Below are positions 37,037-57,085 of a stretch of DNA of 64,000 nucleotides, piece by piece. Numbering within the stretch: the first letter of the stretch is position 1; every line of letters starts with the position of its first letter. The DNA comes from an uncultured Lentisphaeria bacterium. GTDB lineage: Bacteria > Verrucomicrobiota > Lentisphaeria > Victivallales > UBA1829. Below the pieces are notes generated by a model that saw only the letters and a list, made by a program, of their open reading frames with translations, was not told the origin of the DNA and ran no database searches. The stretch spans positions 254-64,253 of the forward strand of contig CAJMAW010000001.1 in NCBI GenBank assembly GCA_905211485.1. Reading direction: 5' to 3'. The translations under genes and the position numbers were made by a program.

Positions 37037-37282
37037 AGTTTTTTTTTGCCGTTGTTGCTCTGGGAAACATCTTTTTGCGTCCGAGCTTTTTCCCCCTTTC
37101 CGAGGGTCTCCGGCCATGTGGGGAAAATATTCTTTCCACTTCTGGCTGCATTGGAAAAAAATGAAAAACAGGCTATATTACAAGCTTGAGGTCTTCCGGA
37201 GCCTGTCGCCGTCTTTCCCGGATCGCGGGAGCTTGTGAGAAAATCCGGAAGGATGGATCAACATACAAGGAAAGCATTTTGC

Positions 37283-40615: not shown

Positions 40616-42955
40616 TCAGCGGCTGTCTGATTTGGATGTGTTGAAAAGCTGAATCAGTTCCGCTTTCCATTTTTCGTATTCGGGGGCGCCTTCCAGCTGG
40701 CGGAGGAGTGTCTGAGCCATGATTTCAGCGCGTTTCCGATCTCCGGGGAGTGCGTAGCGGATTCTCCGGATTGTATTTTCGCGGAGGAGGCGGACTTGTT
40801 CATAGAGTTCGGTATTGGCCGGCTGGAGTTTCAAGGCGTTTCCCGGATTGCCCTTCAGGAGTTCCAGGGCGGACTTCACTTCCTTTTCCTCGCCCGGGCT
40901 CATGGAGTTTTTAGCGGAAAGGATCTGCCAGAGGGTATCCGTGGAGAACTGTGTCCAGGGCTTCTGGTGGATTTTGCCGTCCTCCTGATAATCGATGTAC
41001 CCGCCGGAAATGACGACGATTTTCGCTCCGCTGCCGAAGGATGTGAGCGCATACTTTGTTCCGCTTCCCGTGACAGCCGTATCAATTCTGGAGATACGTG
41101 CGTTTTCCGTTTCGCATTTCCGGATCCAGTCCTTCAGTTCCGGAGAGCGGATGGATTCCATTGTGAGCATGACGTCGATATCGTTGAAACGGCGTTGTTC
41201 TCTGAGTTTCAGAATCTGGGTTCGGATGTCGTCTTTCCTGATTTTCAGGAGAAGCGGGGAAACTGCCTCGTACTTCCGTCTGAAGGACTCTGCGGCGGCA
41301 CTTTGAGTCTTGAGTTCCTTTTTCAACGTGAGGATTTCCTCGTTCAGCAGAGCCAGCTGCTGCGGATCCGTATCAGAGTTTTGCTGCGGAGAAGAAGGAG
41401 ACGAAGAGGATTCGGAAACGCCTGCGGGTTCTCCGGAAGCCTGATCCGTTCCTGATTCCGCAGATGGTTCCGGCTGCTGCTGTCCCGTGGAGGGCTGAGA
41501 GGTTTCCTTTGCGGAGGCCAGAGCCGTTTTCAGATCCGTATTCTCCTGACGGAGGGCGGCAAGATCCGAGAGCGCGGCATCTTTTTCCGTTTCCAGACGG
41601 GAAACGGACGCTTCCAGTGCCTCCTGGCTGCGTTCCAGCATGATGCTTCTGATTTTCGCCGCAAAATACTGTTCCGCCGTATTCTGGATCGGAGTGACTT
41701 TTTTGAGCAGGGCTTCCCCTTCTGTGAGAATGACCTGAAGCTCCATGGACCTGTCCGCCGCGAAGCGTTCAAAACTGGCGGCATCCTCCAGGAGCTTTTT
41801 TTCCTTTTCGGTCATCCGGTTTCCGAAAAGGAAACTCAGAATGATGAGCAGGATCAGCAGCAGGGGCAGGGCAATGAGGACAAGCTTCATATAGTCGTAG
41901 CGGGATTTGATCTGCTGCTCCATCTTCTTGACATGGCGTTTTTCGGCAATGGACTCATGCTGAATGTCATAGTCCAGCCTTTTGATGGAGATGGTGTGGA
42001 CGTCCGGGATCAGGCTTTTGTTCGGCGCGGTTTTCTGGCGGATCATCCAGATTTCATTGAGGAGCGCCTCCATGTCCTGGAAACGGTCGTCCGGATGTTT
42101 CGCCATCATTTTGTGAACGAGGGCGTCCACTTTGGGGGGAATGTTCGGATCCAGGTGATGGAGTGCTTCCGCGTTTTCCTCGAAATGCTGTCTGGCGACG
42201 CTCTTGATCGTTTCCGCACAGAAGGGCAGACGGCCGGAAAGCATCTGGTAAAGCGTGACGCCCAAACTGTAGATGTCGCTCCTCGTATCGAGTTTTTCCC
42301 CGCAGAACTGTTCCGGACTCATGTAGGAGGGACTCCCCGAAATTTCCATGCCCTCCCTCCATTCGCTCTGGTTGATGGCAAGCCCGAGATCCGTGAGCTT
42401 GACGATTCCGTCTTCGGTGATCATGATGTTGTCCGGCTTCACGTCGCGGTGAATCAGCCTGCTTTCATCCCAGGCGTAATAGAGCGCCTCCGCAACCTGC
42501 TGGACAATATGAAGTGCTTCATCCACCGGAATTTTCTTTTCCCGACGGAGACGGCTTTTGAGAGTCTCGCCGCTGATATAAGTCATGGCCATGAAATAGA
42601 CTCCGTTGTCCTCCCCGACTGCATAGGACTGAACCAGATTGGTATGGCTCAGCTTTGCCGCGGCCCTGGCTTCTCTCAGAAAGTCGCGAGTTCCTTTGGC
42701 CGTGATATATTCGGGAAACAGGATTTTCAGCGCCACGGGCCGGTCAAGTGAAATCTGCGTCGCTTTGTAGACCGCTCCGATGGAACCGGCCCCGAGTTTG
42801 CTGTTGAGCACAAAATCCCCCACAATGCATCCTTCGTCAAACGGATTGGAAGGTACGAGAATGCTTTTCCCGCAGCTGGTGCAGTTGGTGCGGTAACCGC
42901 GTGCGGAATCATCCACGCTCATTGCATAAAAACAAAAAGGACAACTGAATCTCAT
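40616..42955 (-). CDS. Hanks-type Ser/Thr protein kinase with N-terminal zinc ribbon, one TM segment, coiled coil and a C-terminal domain of unknown function
   Basis: CPFCFY...CTSCGK provides two CxxC pairs. Kinase motifs are GAGSIGAVYKA, HRDVKPDNIMI, DLGLA and SPSYMSPE. TM segment LVLIALPLLLILLIILSFLFG. The track start at 42991 is TTG; I use ATG 42955. Confidence 0.88.
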   Translation of the reverse strand: MRFSCPFCFYAMSVDDSARGYRTNCTSCGKSILVPSNPFDEGCIVGDFVLNSKLGAGSIGAVYKATQISLDRPVALKILFPEYITAKGTRDFLREARAAAKLSHTNLVQSYAVGEDNGVYFMAMTYISGETLKSRLRREKKIPVDEALHIVQQVAEALYYAWDESRLIHRDVKPDNIMITEDGIVKLTDLGLAINQSEWREGMEISGSPSYMSPEQFCGEKLDTRSDIYSLGVTLYQMLSGRLPFCAETIKSVARQHFEENAEALHHLDPNIPPKVDALVHKMMAKHPDDRFQDMEALLNEIWMIRQKTAPNKSLIPDVHTISIKRLDYDIQHESIAEKRHVKKMEQQIKSRYDYMKLVLIALPLLLILLIILSFLFGNRMTEKEKKLLEDAASFERFAADRSMELQVILTEGEALLKKVTPIQNTAEQYFAAKIRSIMLERSQEALEASVSRLETEKDAALSDLAALRQENTDLKTALASAKETSQPSTGQQQPEPSAESGTDQASGEPAGVSESSSSPSSPQQNSDTDPQQLALLNEEILTLKKELKTQSAAAESFRRKYEAVSPLLLKIRKDDIRTQILKLREQRRFNDIDVMLTMESIRSPELKDWIRKCETENARISRIDTAVTGSGTKYALTSFGSGAKIVVISGGYIDYQEDGKIHQKPWTQFSTDTLWQILSAKNSMSPGEEKEVKSALELLKGNPGNALKLQPANTELYEQVRLLRENTIRRIRYALPGDRKRAEIMAQTLLRQLEGAPEYEKWKAELIQLFNTSKSDSR

Positions 42956-43277
42956 GGCGTGCTGCACATCTTTCCGGTTTGCAGAACTCAACTCTCAAAA
43001 ACCCCATAAATATGACACCGGAAACGTTATTTTCAAATTTTCCCGTTCTTCTTTCCCAGGAAAGATGTCTCCTTCCCTTTCTTTCCCGGAGGGGGCAGGT
43101 CCGGCGATCCTTTCCTTTCCCTCTCTTCTCATTCTTCCTGTTACTCCTGCATTCCTCTTCTTCGCGTCCTCCCCCTCCGCGGCGCGAAAATCAGGGACTT
43201 TACGGATGGAACGCTTTCATTTGCCTTCACTTCGTGTATATTAACGGAATATGAAGATGTGGAGGACAGGAAAATAC

Positions 43278-44208: not shown

Positions 44209-45072
44209 TCAGCGGAAGGAGGCGATGTTCTTTCCCAGCGGACGGCTGACTCTCACGGAGGAGGGAATCACAACCCTCTGGAATCCGAATTCCGGGATTC
44301 CGAAGAGCATTGCGTAGCCGGGCCTGTAATGCTCCGGAATTCCCAGAAAGCGGAAGACTTCCGGAGCAGCCGAATGAAAGGCGGACATGGCTCTTCCGCA
44401 CCAGAGCGTCCCGATGTTTCTGCTCTGCGCATACAGTTCAAAATAGCTCAGCGCGATGATCGGGTCGATTTCGGCGCACGGCGCGTCCTCCGGGCTTGAC
44501 ACCAGCAGAAGGTGCGGCGCCCTACGGAAAATCGGATCCTCTCCTTTCAGAATCGCCTGTTTCGACGGCGCGAATTTCATTGCCGGGGCGGAGTCCGGAG
44601 CTTTTTCCAGCAGTTCAAGAACTTTGGAATTGGTGTACTCGCGCAGTGTGTCCATGCTTTCCAGATTGTCGACCACGGCAAAATGAAGACGGTGATTGTT
44701 GACGCCTGTCGGGGAGAAACGCATGGCGTCCAGCAGTTCCCGGAGCGTTTCCTGCGGCACGTTTTCGCGCTTGTAATGGCGGAAGGAGCGCCGGCCCCGC
44801 AGCAGATCCCGCATTCTTTCCGGATCCGGGAAGATCCCGGGGGCCGGACAGCTGTCCGGAGAAATGCCGTCGATGGAAAGAGCTCCTTCCGGACAGATCA
44901 TGACGCAGTGTGCGCAGTGAATGCATCTGGCCGATCCTCCGTCCTCTGCCTCTTCCGGATATCCTCCCTCTTTCCCCATGGAAAGAACGCGGTTGACGCA
45001 TTTTTCAACACAGAGTCCGCAGCGTATGCATTTCCCATGGTCGATTTTCAGTTCGATGGATTCTTTATACAT
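44209..45072 (-). CDS. Nitroreductase-family protein with N-terminal 2x[4Fe-4S] ferredoxin domain
   Basis: CIRCGLCVEKC and CIHCAHCVMICP, followed by RRSFRHYKRENVPQETLRELLDAMRFSPTGVNNH (nitroreductase fold). Confidence 0.85.
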   Translation of the reverse strand: MYKESIELKIDHGKCIRCGLCVEKCVNRVLSMGKEGGYPEEAEDGGSARCIHCAHCVMICPEGALSIDGISPDSCPAPGIFPDPERMRDLLRGRRSFRHYKRENVPQETLRELLDAMRFSPTGVNNHRLHFAVVDNLESMDTLREYTNSKVLELLEKAPDSAPAMKFAPSKQAILKGEDPIFRRAPHLLLVSSPEDAPCAEIDPIIALSYFELYAQSRNIGTLWCGRAMSAFHSAAPEVFRFLGIPEHYRPGYAMLFGIPEFGFQRVVIPSSVRVSRPLGKNIASFR

Positions 45073-45537: not shown

Positions 45538-46695
45538 ATGAATCTGGCGTTTGCACTCTTCAAATACTTTCCCTTCGGAGGCCTCCAGCGCGACATGATG
45601 CGCATGGCGGAGAAAGCCGTCGCGCGCGGACATCAGGTGACGGTTTTTGTGTCGGAATGGAAGGATGCGCCTCTTCCCGCGGAGACGTCCGGGCTTTCCG
45701 TGCGCTTCCTGAAAACCCGTGCTCTGACGAATCACGGGGCCATGAAGGACTTTGAACGCCGTTTTCAGGAGGAGGTCCGTCTTCTTCCGGGACGATTCGA
45801 TCTGACCGTCGCTTTCAACCGGATTGCCGGATGCGATTTTTATTTTGCCGCGGATAACTGCCTTGCTGCGGAACTTCCGAAGAAACACAGTCGGCTCTCC
45901 CTTCGTTTCCATCCCCGTTACCGGGTCTTTCTGCAGATGGAATCCGCCATTTTCAGCCCCCGTTCGGAGACCCGGATCCTTTACATTGCTCCGCGCCAGA
46001 AAACGGACTATTCTGCCTGTTACGGAACGCAGGAACAGCGCTTTTTCCTTCTGCCTCCGGGGATGAATCCGGCCTGTCGTCGGCCGGAGACGGTTGCGGC
46101 TGCGGAGAGTCTCCGTGTTTCAAAACGTGCGGAACTCGGCCTTTCGCAAAACGATCTGGCACTTCTTCTTCTGGCTTCCAATTTTGATCTGAAGGGTGGA
46201 GACCGCGTCATCCGCGCGCTGGCGTCCCTTCCACCCGGGTGGAAGGATCGTTGTGTTCTGTGCCTGGCGGGACCGGGTTCCGTGAAACGCTGCATGGCTC
46301 TGGCATCGGCGCTGGGCGTGTCGGAGAAAATCCGCGTCCTCGGCGGCAGAAACGATGTGCCGGAGCTGCTGCTCGCTTCGGATCTGATGGTGCATCCGGC
46401 TCGGGAAGAATCCGCGGGAAGCGTTCTGGTCGAAGGAATTGCTTCGGGACTCCCTGTCCTCTGCAGCGGAGAATGCGGTTTTTCTCCCTATGTGCGCGAG
46501 TCCGGAGGCACGGTGCTCTCCGAACCCTTCTCCCAGCAGGAGCTGAATGAGCAGTTGAAATCCATGCTGCCCGGTCTGGAGGAAATTTCGCATTCCGTGC
46601 GTTCGTATGCCGGATCTGCCGATTTCTGCCGGAGGGAGGAAGTGGCGCTGGAATATCTGGAATCCGCTTTCCTCTCCGTCTCATCCCGGAAGTGA
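45538..46695 (+). CDS. waaG: GT4 lipopolysaccharide core glucosyltransferase I
   Basis: MNLAFALFKYFPFGGLQRDMMRMAEKAVARGHQVTVF and HPAREESAGSVLVEGIASGLPVL are colinear with my recollection of E. coli WaaG/RfaG. Confidence 0.85.
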   Translation: MNLAFALFKYFPFGGLQRDMMRMAEKAVARGHQVTVFVSEWKDAPLPAETSGLSVRFLKTRALTNHGAMKDFERRFQEEVRLLPGRFDLTVAFNRIAGCDFYFAADNCLAAELPKKHSRLSLRFHPRYRVFLQMESAIFSPRSETRILYIAPRQKTDYSACYGTQEQRFFLLPPGMNPACRRPETVAAAESLRVSKRAELGLSQNDLALLLLASNFDLKGGDRVIRALASLPPGWKDRCVLCLAGPGSVKRCMALASALGVSEKIRVLGGRNDVPELLLASDLMVHPAREESAGSVLVEGIASGLPVLCSGECGFSPYVRESGGTVLSEPFSQQELNEQLKSMLPGLEEISHSVRSYAGSADFCRREEVALEYLESAFLSVSSRK

Positions 46696-46800: not shown

Positions 46801-47838
46801 TTACAGCCATCCCGGCACGGCATTGAGTCCGTATCTGCGGAGGAAGTCCGCGGCTGTCCTCAAGTCGTTGTCGGAGGGAGGGGTGATTCCCTCCATGAAA
46901 TGCCCGGCGATCCCGAGCGCGGCATATTTGGCCCCTGCCAGCCGATGATAGACAAGAAGCCGGACTCTCCACGGATTCAGACCCCTGAGAAATTCCCCGC
47001 TCTGCCTCAGATCCTTTTCGGAATCGTTGATTCCGGGGATGAGGGGAATGCGGATTTCGATTACGGCTCCTTCACGGGCAAGGAAGAGCAGATTTTCCCG
47101 GATGAGAGCGTTTTCCTGTCCGGTCAGGGCTTCATGGACTTCGGGATCGGGGTGTTTCCAGTCGGCGAGGAAGAGATCCGTATACGGGAGAAGGTCTTCC
47201 AGCGCTCTCCGCGGGGCGAAACAGCTGCTGTCCAGGGCGGTATGGATTCCCTGCGTCCGGCATGCGGAGAAGAATGCCCGGCAGAACTCCGCCTGAAGAA
47301 GCGGTTCGCCTCCGGAAAGAGTCACTCCGCCTCCGGATTCGTCATAAAATTCCCGGTCGCTCAATGCCTCTTCGAGCATTTCGGACACGCTTTTTTCCTT
47401 CCCGTACAGTCGGAGTGCTCCGGAAGGGCATACCTCTTCACATTTCCCGCATGCGGTACAGAGTTTCCGGTGGAATTGGTGGCGGGTAAATGCAGGCGAT
47501 TCCTCATCCCATGCAGACTTCCGTCCTGCGGACCGCTGGGTTTGCCCGAGGAATCTCTGCGTTCCCGGGAGGATCCTATGGGCTCCGGAGGGGCAGACTT
47601 TCTCGCATTCTCCGCAGAGGATGCAGTTCTGTTCATAAAAGGCCATCTGCGCAGTGGGGGAAAAGGTTTCGGGGTTGTGGCACCAGCGGCAGCGGAGAGG
47701 GCAGCCCTTCAGGAAAAACGTGGTCCGGATTCCGGGACCGTCGTGTACGGAAAAGTGGCGGATGTCCGCAAGAACGGCTCTCCTCTCCACCACGGCGGGG
47801 GCGGGGTGAGGGGAGGGACGGCGAAGGGGGAACACCAT
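46801..47838 (-). CDS. Glycyl-radical enzyme activating enzyme (radical SAM, with two auxiliary ferredoxin-type clusters)
   Basis: CPLRCRWCHNPE (CX3CX2C). CILCGECEKVCPSGA and CTACGKCEEVCPSGA. GGVTLSGGEPLL. Start set at ATG 47838, preceded by AAGGAGAAGGAGAAG. The ORF remains open upstream to 48303, so the true start is uncertain. Confidence 0.85.
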   Translation of the reverse strand: MVFPLRRPSPHPAPAVVERRAVLADIRHFSVHDGPGIRTTFFLKGCPLRCRWCHNPETFSPTAQMAFYEQNCILCGECEKVCPSGAHRILPGTQRFLGQTQRSAGRKSAWDEESPAFTRHQFHRKLCTACGKCEEVCPSGALRLYGKEKSVSEMLEEALSDREFYDESGGGVTLSGGEPLLQAEFCRAFFSACRTQGIHTALDSSCFAPRRALEDLLPYTDLFLADWKHPDPEVHEALTGQENALIRENLLFLAREGAVIEIRIPLIPGINDSEKDLRQSGEFLRGLNPWRVRLLVYHRLAGAKYAALGIAGHFMEGITPPSDNDLRTAADFLRRYGLNAVPGWL

Positions 47839-48085
47839 CTTCTCCTTCTCCTTTTCTTTTCCCTTGATTTCCCCTGATTCGTTTTCTTTTTCTTTTTTTC
47901 CGTTTCCGTCTCCATATCCGTTTCCGCGGCTGTTTTCTTTTCCTTCCAGAAAGTCTTTTTTCGCCTCTTTCCCATAGTTTCCGGAAGGGAGGGGGGGAGG
48001 AAGGGAGTCCGGAGGATGAGGAAATTCCCCTCCCGACAGGGGAAGAGAAACGGACGGCGAATCCGTGCAGGACGCTTCCTTTGAT

Positions 48086-50365
48086 TCATTCCCGGATTCT
48101 TGAGGCTCGTTCAATGTAGGCATCCTGCTCCTTTCGCGAGAGATCATTCCAGCGGACGTTCCAGCCGCAGACGCGGACCTGGAGCGATTCATATTTTTCC
48201 GGGTGTTTCTGTGCATCCAAAAGTGTTTCCTGATCGAAGAGGTTGAAATGAAGAGCAATCCCGTTTCTCTTTCTGTAGATTTCAAGGAGTGAGAAAAGAA
48301 CATTCAGTCCATCTTCTCCGGAGACTGTGGCGGGATGCATCATGACATCGAGGGAAAAGTCCCCCGGGAAACGGGAGGAATCGATTTCCGTCACGGATCG
48401 CAGCAGTGCGGCGGTTCCGTTGACGTCTGTCCCCATGACGGGAGAAAGGTTTTTGGAGAGTTCCTCCCCTTTCTTTCTCCCGTCCGGCGTGGCGGAAGTT
48501 TTTTCTCCGAGTGTGATGAACGATCTTGCCGCATGCCCGCTCGCCATCCAGAATCCGCCCCGGCTGTTGGGGCGCAGATTGATTTTGGAACTGAGAAAAT
48601 TTGCCAGCATTTCGGCAAGAAAATCACTTTCCTTGTCTCCGTTTCCGTACTTTGCCGAGTCGTGCCGGATCCGGAGGCGAAGCGCTTCGCGGCCCTCCCA
48701 GTTGCTCCGGAGCGTTTCCGCCATTTCGGAGAGAGAGAGAACTTTTTCCCTGAAAACGAATTTCCGGATCGCCGACAGGGAATCGACCGCGCTTGCGAAA
48801 CCGGAATAAAGCATGAGAGTGTTGTTGTAGAGACAGCCGGTGGAAAAGGCGTCGCGCGCCGTTTCGAGACTGTGTTTGATCGCGGCGCAGAGCACTGCCC
48901 CGGGATTGATCGCCGAAAGATGTTTTTCAAATTCGTTGACCTGTCCGACGGTAATTTCAATCATTTCATTCACGAAATGCAGGTAATTCCGGTAAAAAGA
49001 ATCGAAGTCGCCGATATTTCCGATCTCATCACCCCGGATTCCCGAGTCAATTCCCGTCATCGGATCCCTTCCGTTGTTCAGCAGAAGTTCGATTCCTTTG
49101 GGCAGGTTCAGATAGCAGGGCGCTGTGGCGTTGGAGGCGCCGGCAGCGCCGAATTCATAGCAGCCGCAGACATGGCAGGTACGCGCTTCCTCTTCCGTAT
49201 GCCCGCAGGACATCATCGCGCGTTTGATCCCGTCCTCCGAGACAAAAACCAGACTGCTGTTTCCATGCCGGATCATCTCGAATGCCTTCAGAAGAAAGTC
49301 GCGCGGCGTCCGGGCGGAATATTTCAGCTGGATCTTCGGCGAAGTGATTGAAAGGGAATCGAAGACGTCCAGAATCAGAAAGGAGAGTTCGTTGATTACG
49401 CTTGAAGAGTCTTTCTCCGTTCCCCCCAGATAGAAGGGGTGTCCCCAATAATTATTGATGGAGGCGAACTGAAGCATGAAGCAGCCCAGAAGTCTCCGGA
49501 TCTCCTCTTCCGTGAAGGTTCCGGAACTCAGGTCCCGTTTATAATACGGATATAGAATGCGGTCCAGATTCCCCAGCGAACGCACCTGCATGTGATCGAC
49601 ATGTTCGCCAAAAAGAAAATAAAGAAAGATGAGCAGGAGCGCCTCGTACAGATTTCCCGGTGCGGCGCAGGAAAGGTGACGCAGTGCGGTGGCGAGCCTG
49701 GAGATTCTGCTGCTGCTTTTGTTCCCGTCCGCTTTTCCTCCTCCTCCGCGGCTGGAGAGGTCTTGCTCCTGCCCCGCCCTTTTTTCCGCATAGCGGGCGA
49801 AGCGCAGGAGAGTTTCGAGAATGGCGCTGCAAGTAATTTCGACTGATTCAAAATAGATCTCGGATTCCGGAGTGTTTTTGTTTTCCAGACTCCTTTGGGC
49901 ACGGTATTTCTTTGCCCGTTCGAGCAGGCCTTTGAATCCCAGGCTGAGAATGTCGTCCCAGTCCGGCACGGAGTGATCGAAGTCTTTCCATACGGCATAG
50001 ATTCCGGCGCGGTTGAATTCCGCGATCCTGGAGCTCGTTTCCGGGAGGAGGCGTTCATTGACTTCCGTCTCCCAGCGCCGGAGCAGGGGTGCCGCGGGGC
50101 GTCTGTCCCGGTTCCAGCATCCGAATGCGGGAAAGGGATCCGCCGCGTGGACGCCCGTCTGCATGTTGCGGCAGAGATATTCAAAGACTCTGGCCTTGAG
50201 CAGAGGGTGGGGAAGTTCCTTCAGGGAATCGGCGAGAAGGAGAACATCGTTGCGGAGAGTTTCGTTGTCCCTGCCTGTTTCCGGGTCGAGAAAGCATTCC
50301 GGATTGCGGAACTTGGAAAGCAGGATCTTTTTTTCCTCCGGAGAAATGGGAAATTCGTTCTGCAT
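48086..50365 (-). CDS. Glycyl-radical enzyme, PFL2/eliminase-like, substrate unknown
   Basis: The C-terminal motif LQVRVCGWNVRWNDLSRKEQDAYIERA has the RVxG glycyl-radical pattern. The candidate thiyl loop HVCGCYEFG fits G-C-x-E. 759 aa. Confidence 0.85.
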   Translation of the reverse strand: MQNEFPISPEEKKILLSKFRNPECFLDPETGRDNETLRNDVLLLADSLKELPHPLLKARVFEYLCRNMQTGVHAADPFPAFGCWNRDRRPAAPLLRRWETEVNERLLPETSSRIAEFNRAGIYAVWKDFDHSVPDWDDILSLGFKGLLERAKKYRAQRSLENKNTPESEIYFESVEITCSAILETLLRFARYAEKRAGQEQDLSSRGGGGKADGNKSSSRISRLATALRHLSCAAPGNLYEALLLIFLYFLFGEHVDHMQVRSLGNLDRILYPYYKRDLSSGTFTEEEIRRLLGCFMLQFASINNYWGHPFYLGGTEKDSSSVINELSFLILDVFDSLSITSPKIQLKYSARTPRDFLLKAFEMIRHGNSSLVFVSEDGIKRAMMSCGHTEEEARTCHVCGCYEFGAAGASNATAPCYLNLPKGIELLLNNGRDPMTGIDSGIRGDEIGNIGDFDSFYRNYLHFVNEMIEITVGQVNEFEKHLSAINPGAVLCAAIKHSLETARDAFSTGCLYNNTLMLYSGFASAVDSLSAIRKFVFREKVLSLSEMAETLRSNWEGREALRLRIRHDSAKYGNGDKESDFLAEMLANFLSSKINLRPNSRGGFWMASGHAARSFITLGEKTSATPDGRKKGEELSKNLSPVMGTDVNGTAALLRSVTEIDSSRFPGDFSLDVMMHPATVSGEDGLNVLFSLLEIYRKRNGIALHFNLFDQETLLDAQKHPEKYESLQVRVCGWNVRWNDLSRKEQDAYIERASRIRE

Positions 50366-50551: not shown

Positions 50552-50602
50552 AAAAGAAAAAAAAGAGGCATGGCCGCCCGGAAGAAGAGAGGCGGCCATG
50601 CC
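50552..50602 (-). terminator. Rho-independent terminator
   Basis: Minus strand reads GGCATGGCCGCC-12 nt-GGCGGCCATGCC, a perfect 12-bp stem, followed by TCTTTTTTTTCTTTTC. It lies 44 nt downstream of the 50646 stop. Confidence 0.7.
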
Positions 50603-50645
50603 GGCGGATGCGTTGCACATCCGCACAGGGAGGGAAGAAAGAGAC

Positions 50646-51335
50646 TTATTTGAAGTTGCCGTGTGCGTCGAATGTCAGTTTTCCGTCATTGACGTACACG
50701 CCGCATGCTTCCTGATAGTATTTTTCTGGATCGTCGGACAAACTGTTCTGGGAGATGTTTCCCTTTCTGCGCACTGCGACTTTGACCACTCCTTTTTCCC
50801 AGAGCTCTTTGTCCGGCAGACTGTCAATCATGACAATCTGCTGCCCCTTCTTGAGGAGCTTTGCCGTTTTGGTATCAATTCCGAAAACGGAGAAGAGCAC
50901 GTCCGCCGACTCGACTGCAGGCGACTCCTTGGAGGCTTTCCCGACTGCGGAAAACATTCTTTCCTCCGGACTGAGCGGCTCCTGTTCAAAGAGAGCGATG
51001 TATTCGGTATTGCTGCACCCGAAATTCTTGATCGCCTCATTCATTTTTCCGACTCTCTCCGCATCACCCCAGCCCAGAACCACCGCCTGCTTTGCATTCG
51101 GGAAGTGATCCTTCATGACCCGGGCAATGACATAGGCCTGACCGTCAAACAAAATATTCGCCGTCCGGTCGGAAAGACGTGAGGAGACCGTATAATGCGT
51201 CACCGCATAGTAGACGAGACCTCCGCACATCAGCACCACCAGCACAATGCCCAGCTGATGCTTCTGTGTCTTCTTCAGGAAATAAACCCCTGCAATACCG
51301 CAGAGAATTGCAATTGCAAGTATCACATTTTCCAT
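50646..51335 (-). CDS. Hypothetical membrane-anchored protein (two N-terminal TM segments)
   Basis: 229-aa ORF. ILAIAILCGIAGVYFL and LGIVLVVLMCGGLVYYAV are followed by a soluble alpha/beta-looking domain. 43 bp downstream of the DUF1559 gene. Confidence 0.7.
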   Translation of the reverse strand: MENVILAIAILCGIAGVYFLKKTQKHQLGIVLVVLMCGGLVYYAVTHYTVSSRLSDRTANILFDGQAYVIARVMKDHFPNAKQAVVLGWGDAERVGKMNEAIKNFGCSNTEYIALFEQEPLSPEERMFSAVGKASKESPAVESADVLFSVFGIDTKTAKLLKKGQQIVMIDSLPDKELWEKGVVKVAVRRKGNISQNSLSDDPEKYYQEACGVYVNDGKLTFDAHGNFK

Positions 51336-51378
51336 AAATCTACCTCATTTGCTTTAAAATCATTCCAATGAAATGAGA

Positions 51379-52206
51379 TCAGCCTGCGGACTGAGTGTAG
51401 CAAACCGAACAGCCCGTGTCTTCTTCGGTCGCATGTCCAAGTGTATCGGAGAGTGCGGGGACTTCGATGAGGCGGTCATAGAAGGCGCCTCTGGCTGTCG
51501 CAGTATAAGTTTCCATTCCGCCGTCGGCATTGACCAAGTTCAGATAGCTGCCGCCGTCCATGTTGTTGCAGAAGCCGACGATGGGTTCGTCGAAGCCCGA
51601 CATTTCATTCATCACAGGATTCACGCCGTGACGGAATTCCACATGTTTGAAACCGCTGGTCGTTCCCAGTCCCATGCTCGATCCTTCGCTCATGAACACT
51701 CCGCCCGGATTCTTTTCATAGTTCCTGGAATCCGATCCCAGATAATGCGGATTGATCCCGTAGGAAGCTCCGTATCCGTTCACAGCAACGGTCTTGAGGG
51801 GCTTCAGATCATACGCCGTATCCGGTCCCATTGGAATGCTTGGACACCACCACTGTTTCACATAAGGCCCGTCTCCGCCGTACCCTGTATTGAGAGACTG
51901 AGAGGCAGCCTGAGCATATCCGAGTTTCTCCAGAACAGCCCAGGTCATATAACGGTTGGCTCCATCCGAAGCGAAATCCACCTGGACGCCTCTCGGAGGC
52001 ATGAACTGATTGTCCGCATAATAAATCGCGAACATGGTAAAGTTCTGTTTCATGTTGGAAACGCAGTTGATGGCCTGTGCCTTCGCACGTGCCGCCGCCA
52101 GCGCTGGCATCAGCATCCCCGCCAAAATGGCGATGATCGCTATGACGACAAGTAGTTCAATCAGTGTGAAACTTTGACTTCTGAAAAGACCGTGATTCTT
52201 TTTCAT
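51379..52206 (-). CDS. Prepilin-type N-terminal cleavage/methylation domain protein (DUF1559-like)
   Basis: [42 protein letters not shown]. Confidence 0.88.
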   Translation of the reverse strand: MKKNHGLFRSQSFTLIELLVVIAIIAILAGMLMPALAAARAKAQAINCVSNMKQNFTMFAIYYADNQFMPPRGVQVDFASDGANRYMTWAVLEKLGYAQAASQSLNTGYGGDGPYVKQWWCPSIPMGPDTAYDLKPLKTVAVNGYGASYGINPHYLGSDSRNYEKNPGGVFMSEGSSMGLGTTSGFKHVEFRHGVNPVMNEMSGFDEPIVGFCNNMDGGSYLNLVNADGGMETYTATARGAFYDRLIEVPALSDTLGHATEEDTGCSVCYTQSAG

Positions 52207-52810
52207 TTGTTTTCTCCCGATTGTTTTTCCCCCGCACGAATGAGACCAGTCCGTGCCTCAGGTTTTGACGACATTCAAAAAGACCTGCTGTAAAAAAACT
52301 TTAAATCAATAGCCGAGATTCTTCCTTCCCGATCTTCCGCACCTCCTTCCCTGATGAATATACGCATCCGATAAAAAAATCGGTTCTGCCGTTTCTTCCT
52401 TTTTCTTGTCTTTGCCAAGCATGATTCCTGTGGCGGGAATGAATGCTGTCCTCTTTTTCAGTCGTGTCCAGCCGTGTCGTTCTTTTCATCCATGCCGCAC
52501 CCTGTTATTGTTAATTATACAAAGAAATAAAGAATCTGTCAATGACTTTTTTCTTAATTGTGAGAAAAATATTTTAAAATTTTTCTCTTTTTTGATTGTT
52601 TTTCGGGGGTTTTTTATTGAAGCAGGCAGAAACAATGATTTTTTATAATTCTTTTTTCTCTTTCTCGTGAATCAAAAGTGAGAAAGGGCTCCTGGAGGGA
52701 AGGCCGGATGCCGGGGTGCGGGAAGAAAAAGAAAGAGATTCCCGGAAAAGGGATTGTGACAGAATCGTCATGAATTCAAACTGGAGAATGAGTACAGGAG
52801 AAATGGAAAG

Positions 52811-52845
52811 AAAAAAAGCCGGGAACGAGATTTCCCGTTCCCGGC
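52811..52845 (-). terminator. Rho-independent terminator
   Basis: Minus strand reads GCCGGGAACG-8 nt-CGTTCCCGGC, a perfect 10-bp stem, followed by TTTTTTT. It lies ~110 nt downstream of the 52958 stop, after a second GC-rich hairpin (52888..52926). Confidence 0.7.
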
Positions 52846-52957
52846 CTGCAGTATTTCCGATGTTTTTCCCCCTTCTCATTTTGTATGCCGCCGCCCCCTG
52901 TGGTGAGTGTTCAGGGCGGCGGCTTGCAGAGAGAACGGGGAGGAAAAAACGACAGGA

Positions 52958-55900
52958 TTATTTGTCTTCCTCCTTGTCGTAAACGGCGCTGTAGTCCTTG
53001 ACGCGGACCGAGGGCTCGGACTTCTTGAAATCCAGCAGATCGAGTTTGTTTCTGTTGACTTCGATTCCGATGCCGCGGAGTTTGATCGGCATGTCGATCT
53101 TCTTGTTTCCGCCTTCGGAGACCCACTGCTCGGAGACTGGTCCGGGGCTGTGGTCGTTGAAGAGATCGGTATCGCGGAGAGGATGCGCCACGAAGTTCCA
53201 TCCGTCGAAGTTGACGGAGAGATTTCCTGGCCAGTCAAGGATGTCGCATCCCCATCCGGAGGTGCTGAGAGTCTTCCAGACTTCGCCTTCCGCATCTTCG
53301 ATTTCAAAGAGGATCCGTCCCCAGCTGGAGTTTCCTTTCACCCAGACTCCGACCGCGGCGGGATTGCCTTCGACGGGAACGGGTTCCTTGAACATCAGGT
53401 GGGTGTATTCCGAGATGTATTTCCCGGTGTCCTTGTTTTTGGAGAGGTCCAGAGTCGCCTCGATGCAGTCTCCTTTTTCCTCGTCCTTGACCGCCTTCAC
53501 GATGAAATCGGAGGGTTTGGTGATCGGGAGGAATTTGGTGTGCGTGCTTTCATAGCTCTTGTCCGGAGCGGCGGTGATGCCGTCGAGCGAGCTGAGGGGG
53601 GCGACGACTTTGGATTTTGCGGCGCGAGCCTCGTCCTTCGGGAACGCTCTGTCAAGAATCGAGACCGATTTCACTCCCTTGTCCGAGAGCAGATAGACCG
53701 GAGACGTTCCCGCATCCACGGTGATCTCATTTCCGGACTTCCTGCTTTCCGCCCCATACATCGTGAATTCCCTGACGGACGCTTTCCCGTTGAATTCAAC
53801 CTTGAATTTCACCGTCCCGCGGGAAGCCCAGAGCGCGATGGCCTTCTGGCCGTCTGCGCGATTGAATTCCAGAGCATAGACCGTGGTGGATCCGGTCGGG
53901 ATCTGACGGTTGAATTTGACGCGGTCAAACACATTGGTCAGCGCCGCATACGCTACATACGCGCGTTTCGGATACACATACGGCCCGCGGGTGATGATTC
54001 CGCTTCCGCCCCAGAGTCCGTTGTAGTATCCGCTGGAACAGTCGAAGAAGATCCCGGGGCTGATCAGGAAGAAATCATTGGCCAGGGAGATCAGCACGTC
54101 GCGCATATACCATTCCGCCTGCTGCTGTTCCCCCATGTCGCGTTCGCAGCGGTAGGTGAATTCCCAGGATCCGTTCGCGGGGATTTTCCGCTTGCCGAGC
54201 TTTTCGGCAATGTCCTTGGAAATCATCATGCCCTGGAAACCGACTTCCTGCAGCTTTTCCGGGACAATGACCTGCGAAGGCGTTTCGATCCCGATGTAGT
54301 CATAGTACTGCGGATCGGCTCCTCCGCGCAGCGGGAGTGTGGTAGCTCCGATGGAAGCGCTGCTGTTCCCGATCTGGATTTTCAGTTTCGGGAAATGCTT
54401 CCGGATGATTTTGCCGGCGGCGTTGATGTACTTTCCGAGGTTTTCCGCACGCTCTTTGAGCGCCGGATCGGAAGGCACGTCCATGTTGAGCATTTCTTCC
54501 GGAATACCGTAGCCGGGAGCGGTTTCATGCCAGATGAGGATGTGATCGGATTTCGGGCGTTTGTCCAGATTTTCCTGAATCGTCATCCTGGCATATTCCT
54601 CGCCGGAGACGGTGATCCTCTTTTTCGGATCCTTCGGATCGCGGATCTGTTTTTCCTTGAACTCGCCCGTTGCGGGGTCGAGATCTCTGATTCCGAGGGG
54701 GAACATCAGATTCAGCGTGGTGGTGACGTTGAAACGGTCCATTTCCTCCTGGGAAAGTTTCGCAGTTGCCCAGCTGGCCTTGCGGATTCCGGCTTTCTGG
54801 AACAGGGGACCGGCGACTTCAAAATCGCCGAGACTGCCGTGTGCGTCGAACCACCATGTCGCAAAGGGGGAGGTGTATTTATCCGCTTTGCGTTCGTCTT
54901 TCGCAAGAATGGCGAAGCGCGCCGGATGTGTCAGAATCACGTTGCCTTTTTCATCGGCAAGAGTCATGTTCAGGTCGAAGTACCCGACTTTGTCTTTCGG
55001 AAGGGAGATTTTGAGGGTTTTCTCCTCTCCGGCTTTGGCGAACTGCCAGTCAGCGGAAGAGCCCGCGACTTTTTTCACGTCAGCGTCAAACGCTTCCCAG
55101 ACCAGTTTCCCTTTGGCCGGACGCAGAGACTTCAGCACTACCGATGTCTCCGGATTTTCCGCCTGGGTGAAGACGTTCCCCGGCTGTTTCTGCTCGATAT
55201 CCATCAGAATCGGCGCCTGCTCCAGCGTGATTCCGAAGATCTGCACCGCACTTGTGGAATACGGCGTGGGTTTCCCCGTGCGGTCGATCTGTTCAAAGTT
55301 CTCCCACGGTTTCCCGAAGAAGTCCAGGTTGAGATGCTTTTGTCTTGCGGGAAGATCCAGCACGCTTCCCGTCCCGAGTTCAATCTCGGCAAGATAGAGC
55401 GGTGTTTCCACGCCTTTGATCTTCACGCTTCCGACCTGTTTCATGTTGGCGGGCAGGGCTTCTCCCTTGCGCGGGAAGACGGTGTGCGTATCGGCCATCA
55501 TGTTCTGGCCGCTTCCATTCGGGTAGATGTAGTATCCGATGCGAGTCGTCAGGAACGGATCCTTTGCGGGGTCGGGATCCACGGCGCAGAGGATCCAGGC
55601 CTTGGTATAGTCAGCCGGAGGAAGCAGGTAATGCACTTCGCTCAGGAGTCCGTCGAAGGGCGAACGTCCCAGATATTCCTCGACTTCCAGCGCCCATTCC
55701 CCCATTCCCTGGCGTGCAATGCCGACATCGGAGGAATGTTCCGGGGATGCCACGAACATCGGAATCCCGTTTATATTCGAAAAACCCTCTTTCAGACTGC
55801 TTTGCGCATCAACGAATGCCTTGGCTTTCGGCCGGGCGGTGATGTCAAGCGGATAGTATTTCGGATCGGCTTTCAGGGCCGGGGAATCCGAACGGGCGTC

Positions 55901-57085
55901 CTTGTAGGAGGCACCCTTCTTGAAGAAGAACTCTGCACTCTGCAAGGCTGCGCCCTTGTCGTTCAGGATTCCCGCGTAAGAGCCGTCCAGGAAGAGCCGG
56001 GTATTCTGACCGTCCCGGCGGAATTCGATGCGGAGGGGATGTTCCGAGGCTTTCGGCAGTTTCTCCCAGTCGCGGATGATGTCCACATATTCCGGAACGA
56101 CGCTGTAGCTGCTGTGATAGCGCCGCAGAAGGGGGCGGACATAAACGTTCTGAAGAAGATTCTTATCTCCTTTGACACTCAGGAAAGCATCAGGCAGATC
56201 GATTTTCGTTCCTTTCGCCTGTTCGCCGACAGGGGCCATCAGGGAATGCTTCCGGATCCCTTCTGTGTTGATGGAAAGTTCCGTCTCCGTCCCGTCGCTC
56301 CACTTGAGAATTCCTTTGACCGCATCCTTTTCCGTTCCCGTGATCACGGTGATTCCTCCGGCTTTTTCAGGACGGATGGTCACGGGAGTGCTTTCCGATG
56401 CGGCTGTCTGGAATCCTTTTTTGTCCGTCAGACTTTTCAGGGAGGCTGTCAGATCCAACACGCTGCTGTCCTTCAGTGCCCCGGGGCTGCGGAGAAGGAA
56501 ATGCGATACCGCAAACTGTTTCTCCGGTTCCGCAAAAATATTGAAGCCCTTCAGCTGGAAGGAACCCAATGCGGCAGTGAAGAGTTTTTTATACTGTCTG
56601 TCCGCAGTCACATAGACATCCAGTTTGCCTCCGGAGAATTTGAGAGCCGCCTTTTCCCATTGTCTGGTCCGATGCGGCACCTGGAAGGCCGTTTTGGCTG
56701 TGTCGAGCGACACTTCCTTCGGGGTGAAGACAACGACTTTATCCTTGCCGTCCGCTCCCTTCAGATATACTTTGAATTCTCCCTTGTCGTTATTGAAGCG
56801 GAAATCGAAAAGCAGATCGAAGGCGGAAAGGGTTTTCCCGGCAGCTCCTTGAAAATCCTTGAAGATGAATCCGGGTTCCTTTGCATTGACATTCAGTTCC
56901 GCATTGTCCGCCCAGATCGGATCGTTGCCGACCGAGAATCCTTTCCCCTCCGGACACAACGGCGCCTGTTCCGTGTAGTTCCGGAAGTTCTCCCGGAAAT
57001 ACTCGGCGGGTTCCGCTGCTGAGAGGTACGGAATGACAGGGAGTGAAAGTCCTGCAAGCAGAATCGCATTGCAAATCTTCGGCAT
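52958..57085 (-). CDS. Very large secreted protein (1375 aa), putative multi-domain glycan-active protein
   Basis: Signal peptide MPKICNAILLAGLSLPVIPYLSAAEP. The N-terminal region is beta-sandwich-like. The central region has alternating beta/alpha character (IQIGNSSASIG...YIGIETPSQ...WEFTYRCERDMG). The C-terminal region is beta-rich. No family recognised with certainty. Confidence 0.8.
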   Translation of the reverse strand: MPKICNAILLAGLSLPVIPYLSAAEPAEYFRENFRNYTEQAPLCPEGKGFSVGNDPIWADNAELNVNAKEPGFIFKDFQGAAGKTLSAFDLLFDFRFNNDKGEFKVYLKGADGKDKVVVFTPKEVSLDTAKTAFQVPHRTRQWEKAALKFSGGKLDVYVTADRQYKKLFTAALGSFQLKGFNIFAEPEKQFAVSHFLLRSPGALKDSSVLDLTASLKSLTDKKGFQTAASESTPVTIRPEKAGGITVITGTEKDAVKGILKWSDGTETELSINTEGIRKHSLMAPVGEQAKGTKIDLPDAFLSVKGDKNLLQNVYVRPLLRRYHSSYSVVPEYVDIIRDWEKLPKASEHPLRIEFRRDGQNTRLFLDGSYAGILNDKGAALQSAEFFFKKGASYKDARSDSPALKADPKYYPLDITARPKAKAFVDAQSSLKEGFSNINGIPMFVASPEHSSDVGIARQGMGEWALEVEEYLGRSPFDGLLSEVHYLLPPADYTKAWILCAVDPDPAKDPFLTTRIGYYIYPNGSGQNMMADTHTVFPRKGEALPANMKQVGSVKIKGVETPLYLAEIELGTGSVLDLPARQKHLNLDFFGKPWENFEQIDRTGKPTPYSTSAVQIFGITLEQAPILMDIEQKQPGNVFTQAENPETSVVLKSLRPAKGKLVWEAFDADVKKVAGSSADWQFAKAGEEKTLKISLPKDKVGYFDLNMTLADEKGNVILTHPARFAILAKDERKADKYTSPFATWWFDAHGSLGDFEVAGPLFQKAGIRKASWATAKLSQEEMDRFNVTTTLNLMFPLGIRDLDPATGEFKEKQIRDPKDPKKRITVSGEEYARMTIQENLDKRPKSDHILIWHETAPGYGIPEEMLNMDVPSDPALKERAENLGKYINAAGKIIRKHFPKLKIQIGNSSASIGATTLPLRGGADPQYYDYIGIETPSQVIVPEKLQEVGFQGMMISKDIAEKLGKRKIPANGSWEFTYRCERDMGEQQQAEWYMRDVLISLANDFFLISPGIFFDCSSGYYNGLWGGSGIITRGPYVYPKRAYVAYAALTNVFDRVKFNRQIPTGSTTVYALEFNRADGQKAIALWASRGTVKFKVEFNGKASVREFTMYGAESRKSGNEITVDAGTSPVYLLSDKGVKSVSILDRAFPKDEARAAKSKVVAPLSSLDGITAAPDKSYESTHTKFLPITKPSDFIVKAVKDEEKGDCIEATLDLSKNKDTGKYISEYTHLMFKEPVPVEGNPAAVGVWVKGNSSWGRILFEIEDAEGEVWKTLSTSGWGCDILDWPGNLSVNFDGWNFVAHPLRDTDLFNDHSPGPVSEQWVSEGGNKKIDMPIKLRGIGIEVNRNKLDLLDFKKSEPSVRVKDYSAVYDKEEDK

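Follow-up and report, generated by a model that had tools for sequence, protein, structure and literature searches.

An uncharacterized glycyl-radical enzyme and its activase from an uncultured Victivallales bacterium, and the branch of short enzymes to which they belong

We analyzed a gene for a glycyl-radical enzyme (GRE) and the adjacent gene for its activating enzyme (activase) in a 64,000-nucleotide stretch of DNA from an uncultured gut Lentisphaeria bacterium of the Victivallales (assembly GCA_905211485.1, contig CAJMAW010000001.1), hereafter called the window. Judged by its sequence, this GRE lies outside every characterized clade and is an uncharacterized addition to the established GRE superfamily. 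We think it probable, though far from certain, that the two genes form a functional module of a GRE and a dedicated activase, that the enzyme is most likely a C-O-cleaving 1,2-eliminase, and that its substrate, probably imported, is a carbohydrate-derived hydroxy compound. GREs let anaerobes do chemistry that otherwise needs oxygen or B12, and newly assigned members (CutC, HypD, IslA and PflD/YbiW) have each revealed a gut or environmental pathway. Presence of the catalytic residues in the window enzyme was observed directly, and from these and from the genes that accompany its relatives we infer residue roles, leaving group and substrate class. The elements of the locus are as follows.

50552..50626 (-), tandem-hairpin intrinsic terminator upstream of the GRE gene, from direct reading and RNA folding
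48086..50365 (-), GRE gene, an open reading frame (ORF) of 759 aa
49958..49984 (-), DFDHSVPDW motif with His131, equivalent of His164 of glycerol dehydratase (GD) and His160 of HypD
49709..49756 (-), Gly/Ser-rich insert SSRGGGGKADGNKSSS, residues 204-219, lineage-specific
49562..49591 (-), beta-1 strand MQVRSLGNLD with Gln260 and Arg262; Gln260 is at the position of HypD Asp278 and GD His281
49139..49174 (-), Cys loop HVCGCYEFGAAG, with the predicted thiyl-forming Cys402 at 49160..49162 and Glu404 of the CXE motif at 49154..49156
48518..48544 (-), beta-8 strand ASGHAARSF; His611 is at the position of GD Tyr640, Ala613 at that of HypD Thr645 and GD Ser642
48140..48184 (-), Gly loop LQVRVCGWNVRWNDL containing RVCGW, from sequence reading; predicted radical site Gly734 at 48164..48166
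46801..48123 (-), activase gene, 440 aa from the ATG at 48123 or 345 aa from the ATG at 47838
47839..48123 (-), low-complexity stretch rich in E/G/K/P/S, between the GRE stop and the activase core
47680..47703 (-), radical S-adenosylmethionine (SAM) motif CPLRCRWC (CX3CX2C), from sequence and the Pfam families Radical_SAM and Fer4_12
47590..47625 (-), first ferredoxin-type CX2CX2CX3C motif CILCGECEKVCP, from sequence and Pfam Fer4 families
47425..47460 (-), second ferredoxin-type CX2CX2CX3C motif CTACGKCEEVCP, from sequence and Pfam Fer4 families
45538..46695 (+), convergent glycosyltransferase family 4 (GT4) gene downstream of the activase, from Pfam

The GRE and its activase

The GRE matched the Pfam families for the ten-stranded PFL-like barrel domain (PF02901, E=1.2e-93, residues 103-609) and for the C-terminal glycine-radical domain (PF01228, Gly_radical, E=1.3e-20, residues 637-740). 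Its C-terminus, LQVRVCGWNVRWNDLSRKEQDAYIERA, meets the RVxG[FWY] pattern that holds the radical glycine as RVCGW, and its Cys loop reads G401-C402-Y403-E404, which is the CXE motif of eliminases and isomerases. The partner protein passed the GRE-activase model TIGR02494 (317 bits, cut-off 174) and carries the radical-SAM motif together with both ferredoxin-type clusters. These results bear out the original prediction, made from the sequence alone, of a 759-aa enzyme with a glycyl-radical signature, an eliminase-type G-C-x-E loop and an activase with a CX3CX2C motif and two additional clusters. The spacer between the two ferredoxin motifs (47461..47589) is 43 aa long compared to approximately 17 aa in the activase of one relative, an insertion of about 26 aa.

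A copy of the GRE with 97% identity and the same neighbors was found in an uncultured Victivallales metagenome-assembled genome from the human gut (locus L008, CAKUDG010000001.1). The window copy and this twin differ by 53 synonymous and 22 non-synonymous changes, and the resulting ratio of non-synonymous to synonymous rates (dN/dS) of 0.12 suggests that the gene is under purifying selection. Both reading frames, of the GRE and of the activase, are intact.

The start of the activase gene was reassigned. The listed ORF of 500 aa, with its start at 48303, is over-long, and the true start is either 48123 or 47838. The ATG at 47838 (MVFPL...) has a good Shine-Dalgarno sequence but is present in the window copy only and is missing from the 97% identical copies. 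The ATG at 48123, which is preceded by AAGGAG, is the sole in-frame start common to all three copies and overlaps the GRE gene by 38 nt; in the L008 twin not a single in-frame ATG, GTG or TTG occurs from the GRE stop to the activase core. Across the low-complexity stretch the three copies differ only by in-frame indels of 135, 6 and 3 nt. Because the only shared start is the ATG at 48123 and the indels all keep the frame, this stretch is probably translated as a variable N-terminal extension of the activase, approximately 95 aa long in the window; the leader is T-poor, so that an open frame there is weak evidence by itself. Taken together, the indels, the shared start and its overlap with the GRE gene suggest a variable, disordered extension combined with translational coupling.

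The pair has well-defined boundaries. Upstream of the GRE gene, the second hairpin of the terminator has a perfect 12-bp stem (50602..50567) followed by a T-run to 50552, and the fold has an energy of -42.4 kcal/mol (z = -7.47, none of 200 shuffled sequences folding as well). A simple terminator scan had returned a weak 5-bp stem only, and it missed the 12-bp stem because the loop is longer than the limit of the scan. The tandem hairpin is predicted to insulate the GRE-activase pair from the genes upstream, and on the other side the GT4 gene runs toward the activase; the strong upstream terminator and the convergent downstream gene had both been called correctly from the sequence.

Several features first taken as unusual proved less so. 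The GRE is indeed shorter than its characterized relatives (759 aa versus 765-850 aa), but its shortness is not unique, since E. coli PflD has 765 aa. The N-terminal region of about 250 aa diverges in sequence, as had been remarked, but in the AlphaFold model of the GRE (mean per-residue confidence, pLDDT, 92.8; predicted template-modeling score, pTM, 0.92) it is confidently placed within a normal GRE fold. The Gly/Ser-rich insert is present, yet it is no feature of the family, because among family members it is limited to the window genome and the 97% identical twin, in which its sequence is unchanged. It sits in a helical hairpin, with pLDDT below 50 at residues 209-217, and other inserts occur at the same site in Kiritimatiellae family members. 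In the model it appears as a tolerated, disordered surface loop and not as a functional hallmark.

Placement among GREs and the predicted active site

The window GRE missed every curated NCBIfam cut-off, with scores of 107-309 bits against cut-offs of 678-1150. The highest scores were obtained with the models for HypD (NF043068, 309 bits, cut-off 1100) and for the PFL2/glycerol-dehydratase subfamily (TIGR01774, 297.6 bits, cut-off 678.2), followed by HpfG and HpsG (NF048009 and NF048011, 251 and 238 bits, cut-off 1000 each), PflD (NF007437, PRK09983, 227 bits, cut-off 1109), indoleacetate decarboxylase (218 bits, cut-off 1100), CutC (TIGR04394, 212 bits, cut-off 1050), HPAD (191 bits, cut-off 1150) and pyruvate formate-lyase (PFL; TIGR01255, 107 bits, cut-off 994). 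Among all solved structures the best sequence match was HypD (6.3e-71, 243 bits), closely followed by GD, 1,2-propanediol dehydratase (PD), HpzG and PflD, and a profile of the family described below scored 403 bits against HypD. The structures of BSS, MASS and HPAD were the lowest-scoring GREs other than PFL. Foldseek comparison of the AlphaFold model with all GRE eliminase and isomerase structures gave template-modeling (TM) scores of 0.82-0.88 at 20-23% identity, roughly equal across them; identity to the structures of IslA/IseG and HpsG (7KQ3, 5YMR, 6LON) and of CutC was 20-21%.

We aligned 25 family members with HypD, GD, PD, HplG, Archaeoglobus fulgidus PFL2, E. coli YbiW, E. coli PflD and PflB. 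The window GRE is 24-28% identical to the first seven of these references, which share 30-58% identity with each other, and 20% identical to PflB. In a neighbor-joining tree rooted on PflB and computed without bootstrap, the family is monophyletic and branches outside all seven PFL2-type references. The enzyme does not cluster tightly within a characterized clade, because all cut-offs were missed, identity is only 24-28% and the substrate-contact residues differ (see below); the prediction that it is distinct from the characterized clades was therefore borne out. A June 2026 review of the superfamily (PMC13450708) covers every characterized GRE, and no enzyme in it matches the window family; those with solved structures were all among the structures compared above, and none came close. 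According to the same review, entire GRE clades are without experimental validation. Literature searches for GREs in Lentisphaerae, Victivallales, Kiritimatiellae, Planctomycetes or Oligosphaera brought up no relevant work.

Comparison with individual enzymes revealed both common and differing features. HypD, the trans-4-hydroxy-L-proline dehydratase of C. difficile (PDB 6VXC/6VXE), is the best match and resembles the window GRE in fold (TM 0.85), Gly loop, Cys-x-Glu motif and a His (His160) equivalent to His131, and its activase likewise has two extra ferredoxin motifs of the same type. However, identity is 27.6%, and the P5C reductase context of HypD is absent at the window locus. The B12-independent GD and PD (PDB 1R8W/1R9D and 5I2A/5I2G) also have Cys-x-Glu and the His (His164 and His166, respectively) and show TM scores of 0.85-0.87, and the direct-elimination mechanism proposed for them is the model that we apply to the window GRE; in contrast, identity is 26%, and the window locus has no genes for a microcompartment, an aldehyde dehydrogenase or 1,3-propanediol dehydrogenase. 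The 1,5-anhydrohexitol-6-phosphate isomerases PflD and YbiW (PDB 8ID0 and 8ID7) have the CXE motif, the His and a similar length, but are 24-26% identical, and the phosphotransferase system (PTS), sugar phosphatase and aldolase genes that neighbor them in E. coli are absent at the window locus and in relatives. A. fulgidus PFL2 (PDB 2F3O, function debated) has Gln at the position of Gln260 and G-W after the radical glycine; it is 25.7% identical, is without Arg262 and His611, and groups with the characterized PFL2-type enzymes in the tree.

The catalytic residues could all be located. G734 aligns with GD G763 and HypD G765, and both G734 and W735 are invariant in the family. C402 aligns with GD C433, HypD C434 and PflB C419, and E404 with GD E435 and HypD E436, whereas PflB has Ser at the Glu404 position; G401, C402 and E404 are invariant in both the 25-member and a 36-member set of the family. 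The C-x-E sequence on the Cys loop is a mark of GRE 1,2-eliminases and isomerases (PMC13450708 sections 5.6-5.7). His131 is invariant as well and aligns with a His in HypD, GD, PD, HplG, YbiW and PflD, for which a role as proton donor to, or positioner of, the leaving group has been proposed (PMC13450708, PMC7077986). Q260 and R262 are also invariant in the family. By contrast, positions that contact substrate in HypD (taken from PMC7077986) or in GD carry other residues in the window GRE:

HypD Asp278 / GD His281: Gln260
GD Ser282: Val261
HypD Phe280 / GD Ile283: Arg262
HypD Ser334 / GD Phe333: Tyr306
HypD Asp339: Phe311
GD Asp447: Ala415, variable in the family
GD Tyr640: His611
HypD Thr645 / GD Ser642 (Val in PD): Ala613

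In addition, the HypD loop bearing Lys326 and Ser334 is shortened or replaced, and the part with Lys326 is absent. We considered Arg262 as a substrate-specific anion anchor and dropped the idea, as this residue is conserved across the whole radiation of short GREs described below in spite of differing pockets.

Relatives, domain fusions and gene neighborhoods

After the twin, the next relatives are 46-56% identical to the window GRE and form a tight family of approximately 736 aa. Its hosts are Victivallales and other Lentisphaeria, Phycisphaerae and other Planctomycetota, and Kiritimatiellae, with Oscillospiraceae and Christensenellales appearing at about 40% identity; one cultured carrier is Oligosphaera ethanolica DSM 24202 (locus L041), whose homolog is accompanied by a CMD gene. 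The family signature consists of D128-x-D130-H131, Q260-x-R262, Y306-W307, C402-x-E404, T414, H611-x-A613-R614, E635-x-S637-x-N639 and G734-W735. It is kept down to about 40% identity, and every position of it is present in the window GRE.

An exhaustive phmmer search of 1.84 billion cluster representatives returned 1,496 proteins at E<=1e-30, in which more than 140 clusters (50% identity) of GREs of 680-750 aa outscored the first protein of canonical length (~785 aa). This radiation of more than 140 clusters of short GREs is without a characterized member. D128, H131, R262, C-x-E, S637, N639 and G-W are near-universal across it, whereas Q260, Y-W, H-A-R and E635 mark only the subfamily of the window enzyme (~40 clusters), other subfamilies differing at these positions. 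Some loci hold more than one GRE: tandem GRE-GRE-activase arrays were seen in L062, L072, L076 and L084, and in paralogs in L058, L059 and L062 (the first GRE of the tandem pair) Gly replaces the Glu of C-x-E, giving C-G.

We identified domain fusions among these proteins. Seven of the 150 best representatives were long proteins with a C-terminal GRE of the radiation and an additional N-terminal domain, carbohydrate-active by Pfam or, in P0137, possibly so by motifs:

P0134: GH2 mannosidase-like
P0135 and P0136: AXE1 acetyl-xylan esterase
P0138: PF06439 (3-keto-disaccharide hydrolase)
P0144: SASA esterase
P0233: GH78-like
P0137: no Pfam match; possibly a glycoside-hydrolase-like barrel, by motifs only

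The subfamily signature is kept in four of them (P0134, P0137, P0138 and P0144), and the same domain families are also found elsewhere as separate neighbors of GRE genes. Such fusions provide a Rosetta-stone argument for carbohydrate-derived substrates of the family. Several of the fusion clusters hold multiple full-length members from different contigs, and the fusion ORFs are continuous on contigs of 18-61 kb that are rich in carbohydrate-active genes. An origin of the fusions as TGA read-through artefacts was rejected for most of them on the basis of these multi-member clusters and continuous ORFs, as well as of the absence of a Trp at the junction in P0134, P0137 and P0138. Fusion ORFs were located at L104:8001-12707 (GH2 mannosidase-like), L105:8001-12602 (unannotated N-terminal domain) and L106:1114-4164 (SASA), and the fused GREs are 37-41% identical.

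For the genomic context we surveyed 73 loci, non-redundant and each with a full-length member of the family, on the basis of our own crude ORF calling. In high-GC DNA this calling produced numerous antisense artefacts; cluster c3, for example, is the activase gene read in antisense. An activase was present within two genes of the GRE in 56 of the 73 loci (43 of the 52 with at least two genes on each side), and a divergent AraC-family regulator in 37. In many genomes the unit is AraC-GRE-activase, or a bare GRE-activase pair amid unrelated genes as in the window. Nearby genes, identified on Pfam-annotated contigs and from cluster representatives, included GH5, GH10 and GH78 glycosidases, SASA, AXE-like and GDSL esterases, Gfo/Idh/MocA oxidoreductases and LacI regulators; genes for microcompartments or aldehyde dehydrogenases were not found in the annotated contigs of relatives. 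A small PcaC-like CMD protein was encoded in seven of the 73 loci (L003, L004, L005, L016, L028, L041 and L055). This protein (PF02627, ~125-135 aa, no CxxC) directly adjoins the GRE or the activase, scores 74 bits against the PcaC equivalog cut-off of 156, and may carry out a lactone- or enol-processing step.

Two further neighbors resembled an uncharacterized module of E. coli. The closest clade (55% identical) has its operon flanked by genes for a Na+/solute symporter and for an NhaC-type transporter, and the symporter following the activase (L088:13302-14918) is 45% identical to E. coli YidK and passes the NCBIfam YidK equivalog. In three other lineages a signal-less Cys-type sulfatase that is 39% identical to E. 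coli YidJ over its full length occurs near the operon: it lies between the GRE and the activase in L004:10245-11738 (the same as L067) and in L055:10231-11703, and a partial YidJ-like sulfatase is located approximately 7 kb upstream in L028:2-691, at the locus edge. The E. coli genes yidJ and yidK make up one operon next to yidL, which codes for an AraC-type regulator. The two systems are alike in having homologous accessory genes (in the relatives of the window GRE) and a divergent AraC-type regulator; they differ in that there is no GRE at the E. coli locus and none of these genes in the window. The AraC neighbor was rejected as an ortholog of YidL, as the similarity is confined to the DNA-binding domain.

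The window itself is different from many of these loci. Transporter, regulator, microcompartment and aldehyde dehydrogenase genes are lacking within approximately 8 kb of the pair, and homologs of the CMD protein, the AraC regulator, the sodium/solute symporter family (SSF) and the YidJ-like sulfatase, searched for across the 64 kb, were not found. The genes around the pair code for a pseudopilin-like protein, a 229-aa membrane protein, a 1375-aa protein, an RfaP lipopolysaccharide kinase, a nitroreductase-ferredoxin fusion and a Ser/Thr kinase, and point to no pathway. The statement of the original prediction that the pair has no pathway context is therefore correct for the window but not for the family, in which AraC regulators, transporters, CMD proteins, a cytoplasmic sulfatase, glycoside hydrolases and esterases accompany the relatives. 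Other features of the window are as follows.

50646..57085 (-), same-strand genes upstream of the terminator, for a 1375-aa protein, a 275-aa prepilin-type protein (N-methylation motif) and a 229-aa protein with a hydrophobic N-terminus; this three-gene arrangement is conserved in the 97% identical twin only, and the 229-aa and 1375-aa proteins have no Pfam or NCBIfam annotation
44209..45072 (-), 287-aa protein, an N-terminal 2x[4Fe-4S] ferredoxin domain fused to a nitroreductase-family domain
40616..42991 (-), 791-aa Ser/Thr protein kinase that has a zinc-ribbon-like CxxC...CxxC segment near its N-terminus and whose long C-terminal half is of low complexity
37235..39364 (+), 709-aa protein joining a BcrAD/BadFG-type activator ATPase to an HGD-D domain (2-hydroxyacyl-CoA dehydratase component), which represents another radical-enzyme system in the window, unrelated to the GRE

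Proposed reaction and alternatives

The conserved residues are consistent with a radical elimination of the following form. The activase would cleave SAM at its CX3CX2C cluster, and the 5'-deoxyadenosyl radical would take a hydrogen from Gly734. The radical stored on Gly734 would then generate a thiyl radical on Cys402, which would abstract a hydrogen from the hydroxyl-bearing carbon of the substrate, and Glu404 would accept the hydroxyl proton, leading to a ketyl radical. The group on the adjacent carbon would depart with the assistance of His131, and the product radical would regain its hydrogen from Cys402. Oxygen, either as hydroxide or as that of an ether, ester or ring, is favored as the leaving group because the His is kept in every C-O- or C-N-cleaving enzyme that was aligned. 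A dehydratase would fit, as would a lyase or isomerase in which the oxygen of an ether, ester or ring is the group expelled. The carbohydrate context of the relatives, the esterase and glycosidase fusions and the YidJ/YidK-like genes are hints to a sugar, or a derivative thereof, from decorated glycans, possibly sulfated or acetylated ones. This agrees with the guess of a sugar-derived substrate made in the original prediction.

Several observations weigh against this assignment of an eliminase acting on an imported, carbohydrate-derived compound. The context is borrowed from relatives of at most 56% identity, because the window is without the accessory genes, and YidJ-like or YidK-like neighbors occur in only about eight of the 73 loci. 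Signal-peptide-like segments stand at the start of the fusion proteins and are hard to square with cytoplasmic radical-SAM activation. Pocket residues were assigned from alignments only, and Arg262, being near-universal in the radiation, says little about any one substrate. The alignment and tree comprise the eight references named above, and CutC, IslA/IseG, HpsG, HpyG/HpzG, decarboxylases and X-succinate synthases are covered by HMM scores and Foldseek identities only. Finally, the outcomes of an eliminase and an isomerase are indistinguishable by sequence.

The last point leads to the alternative that survives best, an isomerase that opens a ring or an ether as PflD and YbiW do. Here the ketyl radical would expel a ring or ether oxygen and the product would be an isomer of the substrate, for example of an anhydro-sugar or a glycoside derivative, with no small molecule lost. 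To our knowledge, PflD and YbiW are the only characterized GREs that act on sugars. The ether-oxygen leaving group of these enzymes shows that cleavage is not restricted to C-OH among C-O bonds (PMC13450708), and the combination of CXE and His is common to PflD, YbiW and HplG (PMC13450708 section 5.7). The relatives of the window GRE lie amid carbohydrate genes, with no downstream genes for handling an aldehyde, as an isomerase would permit. However, the PflD equivalog gives 227 bits against 1109, identity to E. coli PflD and YbiW is 24-26%, and the PTS, sugar-phosphatase and aldolase context seen at E. coli ybiW and pflD is lacking. We regard an isomerase as unlikely, although it deserves to be kept in mind.

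A bolder extension of the preferred eliminase assignment, which we offer as a speculation with rather poor prospects, is that the family and the radiation constitute a system of radical C-O lyases that acts on decorated sugars without oxygen, cleaving an ether, ester, sulfate-ester or glycosidic bond beside a free hydroxyl. Candidate substrates may then include O-methyl sugars, anhydro-sugars, acetylated or sulfated monosaccharides and small glycosides. If true, such a lyase would be an anaerobic counterpart of oxidative sugar demethylases or of other O2-dependent glycan chemistry, and would explain why relatives occur inside polysaccharide-utilization loci and are fused to glycoside hydrolases and carbohydrate esterases.

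A lyase that cleaves the C-S bond of a sulfonate or the C-N bond of a quaternary amine (IslA/IseG, HpsG or CutC type) appears very improbable. The CXE motif is common to these enzymes as well (PMC13450708), Arg262 and His611 could bind an anion, and some relatives have sulfatase neighbors. On the other hand, the scores fall far below the cut-offs (HpfG 251 and HpsG 238 versus 1000 bits, CutC 212 versus 1050), the structures of IslA, IseG, HpsG and CutC are only 20-21% identical, and the enzyme retains His131 like the aligned C-O- and C-N-cleaving enzymes. CutC has an Asp, and C-S lyases a Gln, at the His131 site. The neighboring sulfatase is of the sulfate-ester type and does not belong to sulfite metabolism, and neither a sulfite reductase nor a TRAP transporter was seen in the annotated loci of relatives. 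The Arg/Gln/Arg triad that binds sulfonate has been reported to be specific to the IseG cluster (PMC6453916). The sulfonated substrate that had been suggested as a further option is thus disfavored, with the HpsG and HpfG models failing and His131 in place.

Membership in another GRE class (pyruvate or ketoacid formate-lyase, arylacetate decarboxylase or X-succinate synthase), to which only the general PFL-like fold points, can be set aside almost entirely: the enzyme has G-C-Y-E and not the Cys-Cys pair of PFL, PflB has Ser at the Glu404 position and is 20% identical, TIGR01255 gives 107 versus 994 bits and the HPAD and indoleacetate decarboxylase models 191-218 versus 1100-1150, small-subunit genes are not adjacent, and the BSS, MASS and HPAD structures score lowest among non-PFL GREs. 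It is equally hard to believe that the pair is a decaying or non-catalytic remnant, orphaned after the loss of its operon partners and its function. The window does lack an AraC regulator and the accessory genes found in most relatives, both the GRE and the activase contain odd low-complexity insertions, and the window GRE forms the longest terminal branch in the Planctomycetota-Verrucomicrobiota-Chlamydiota (PVC) part of the family tree; yet both frames are intact, every family-invariant residue is present, dN/dS is 0.12 with the insert unchanged in the twin, and none of the indels in the activase leader shifts the frame.

Taken alone, the window copy is of modest interest, being intact and free of context, and it gains more as a representative of a large, unexplored and glycan-linked GRE branch. 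It offers an entry to more than 140 clusters, found mainly in PVC bacteria that degrade glycans and in Clostridia of gut and rumen. Assignment of its substrate would let thousands of annotations as 'pyruvate formate-lyase family' be corrected, and would show what radical step these organisms have added to the anaerobic breakdown of glycans.

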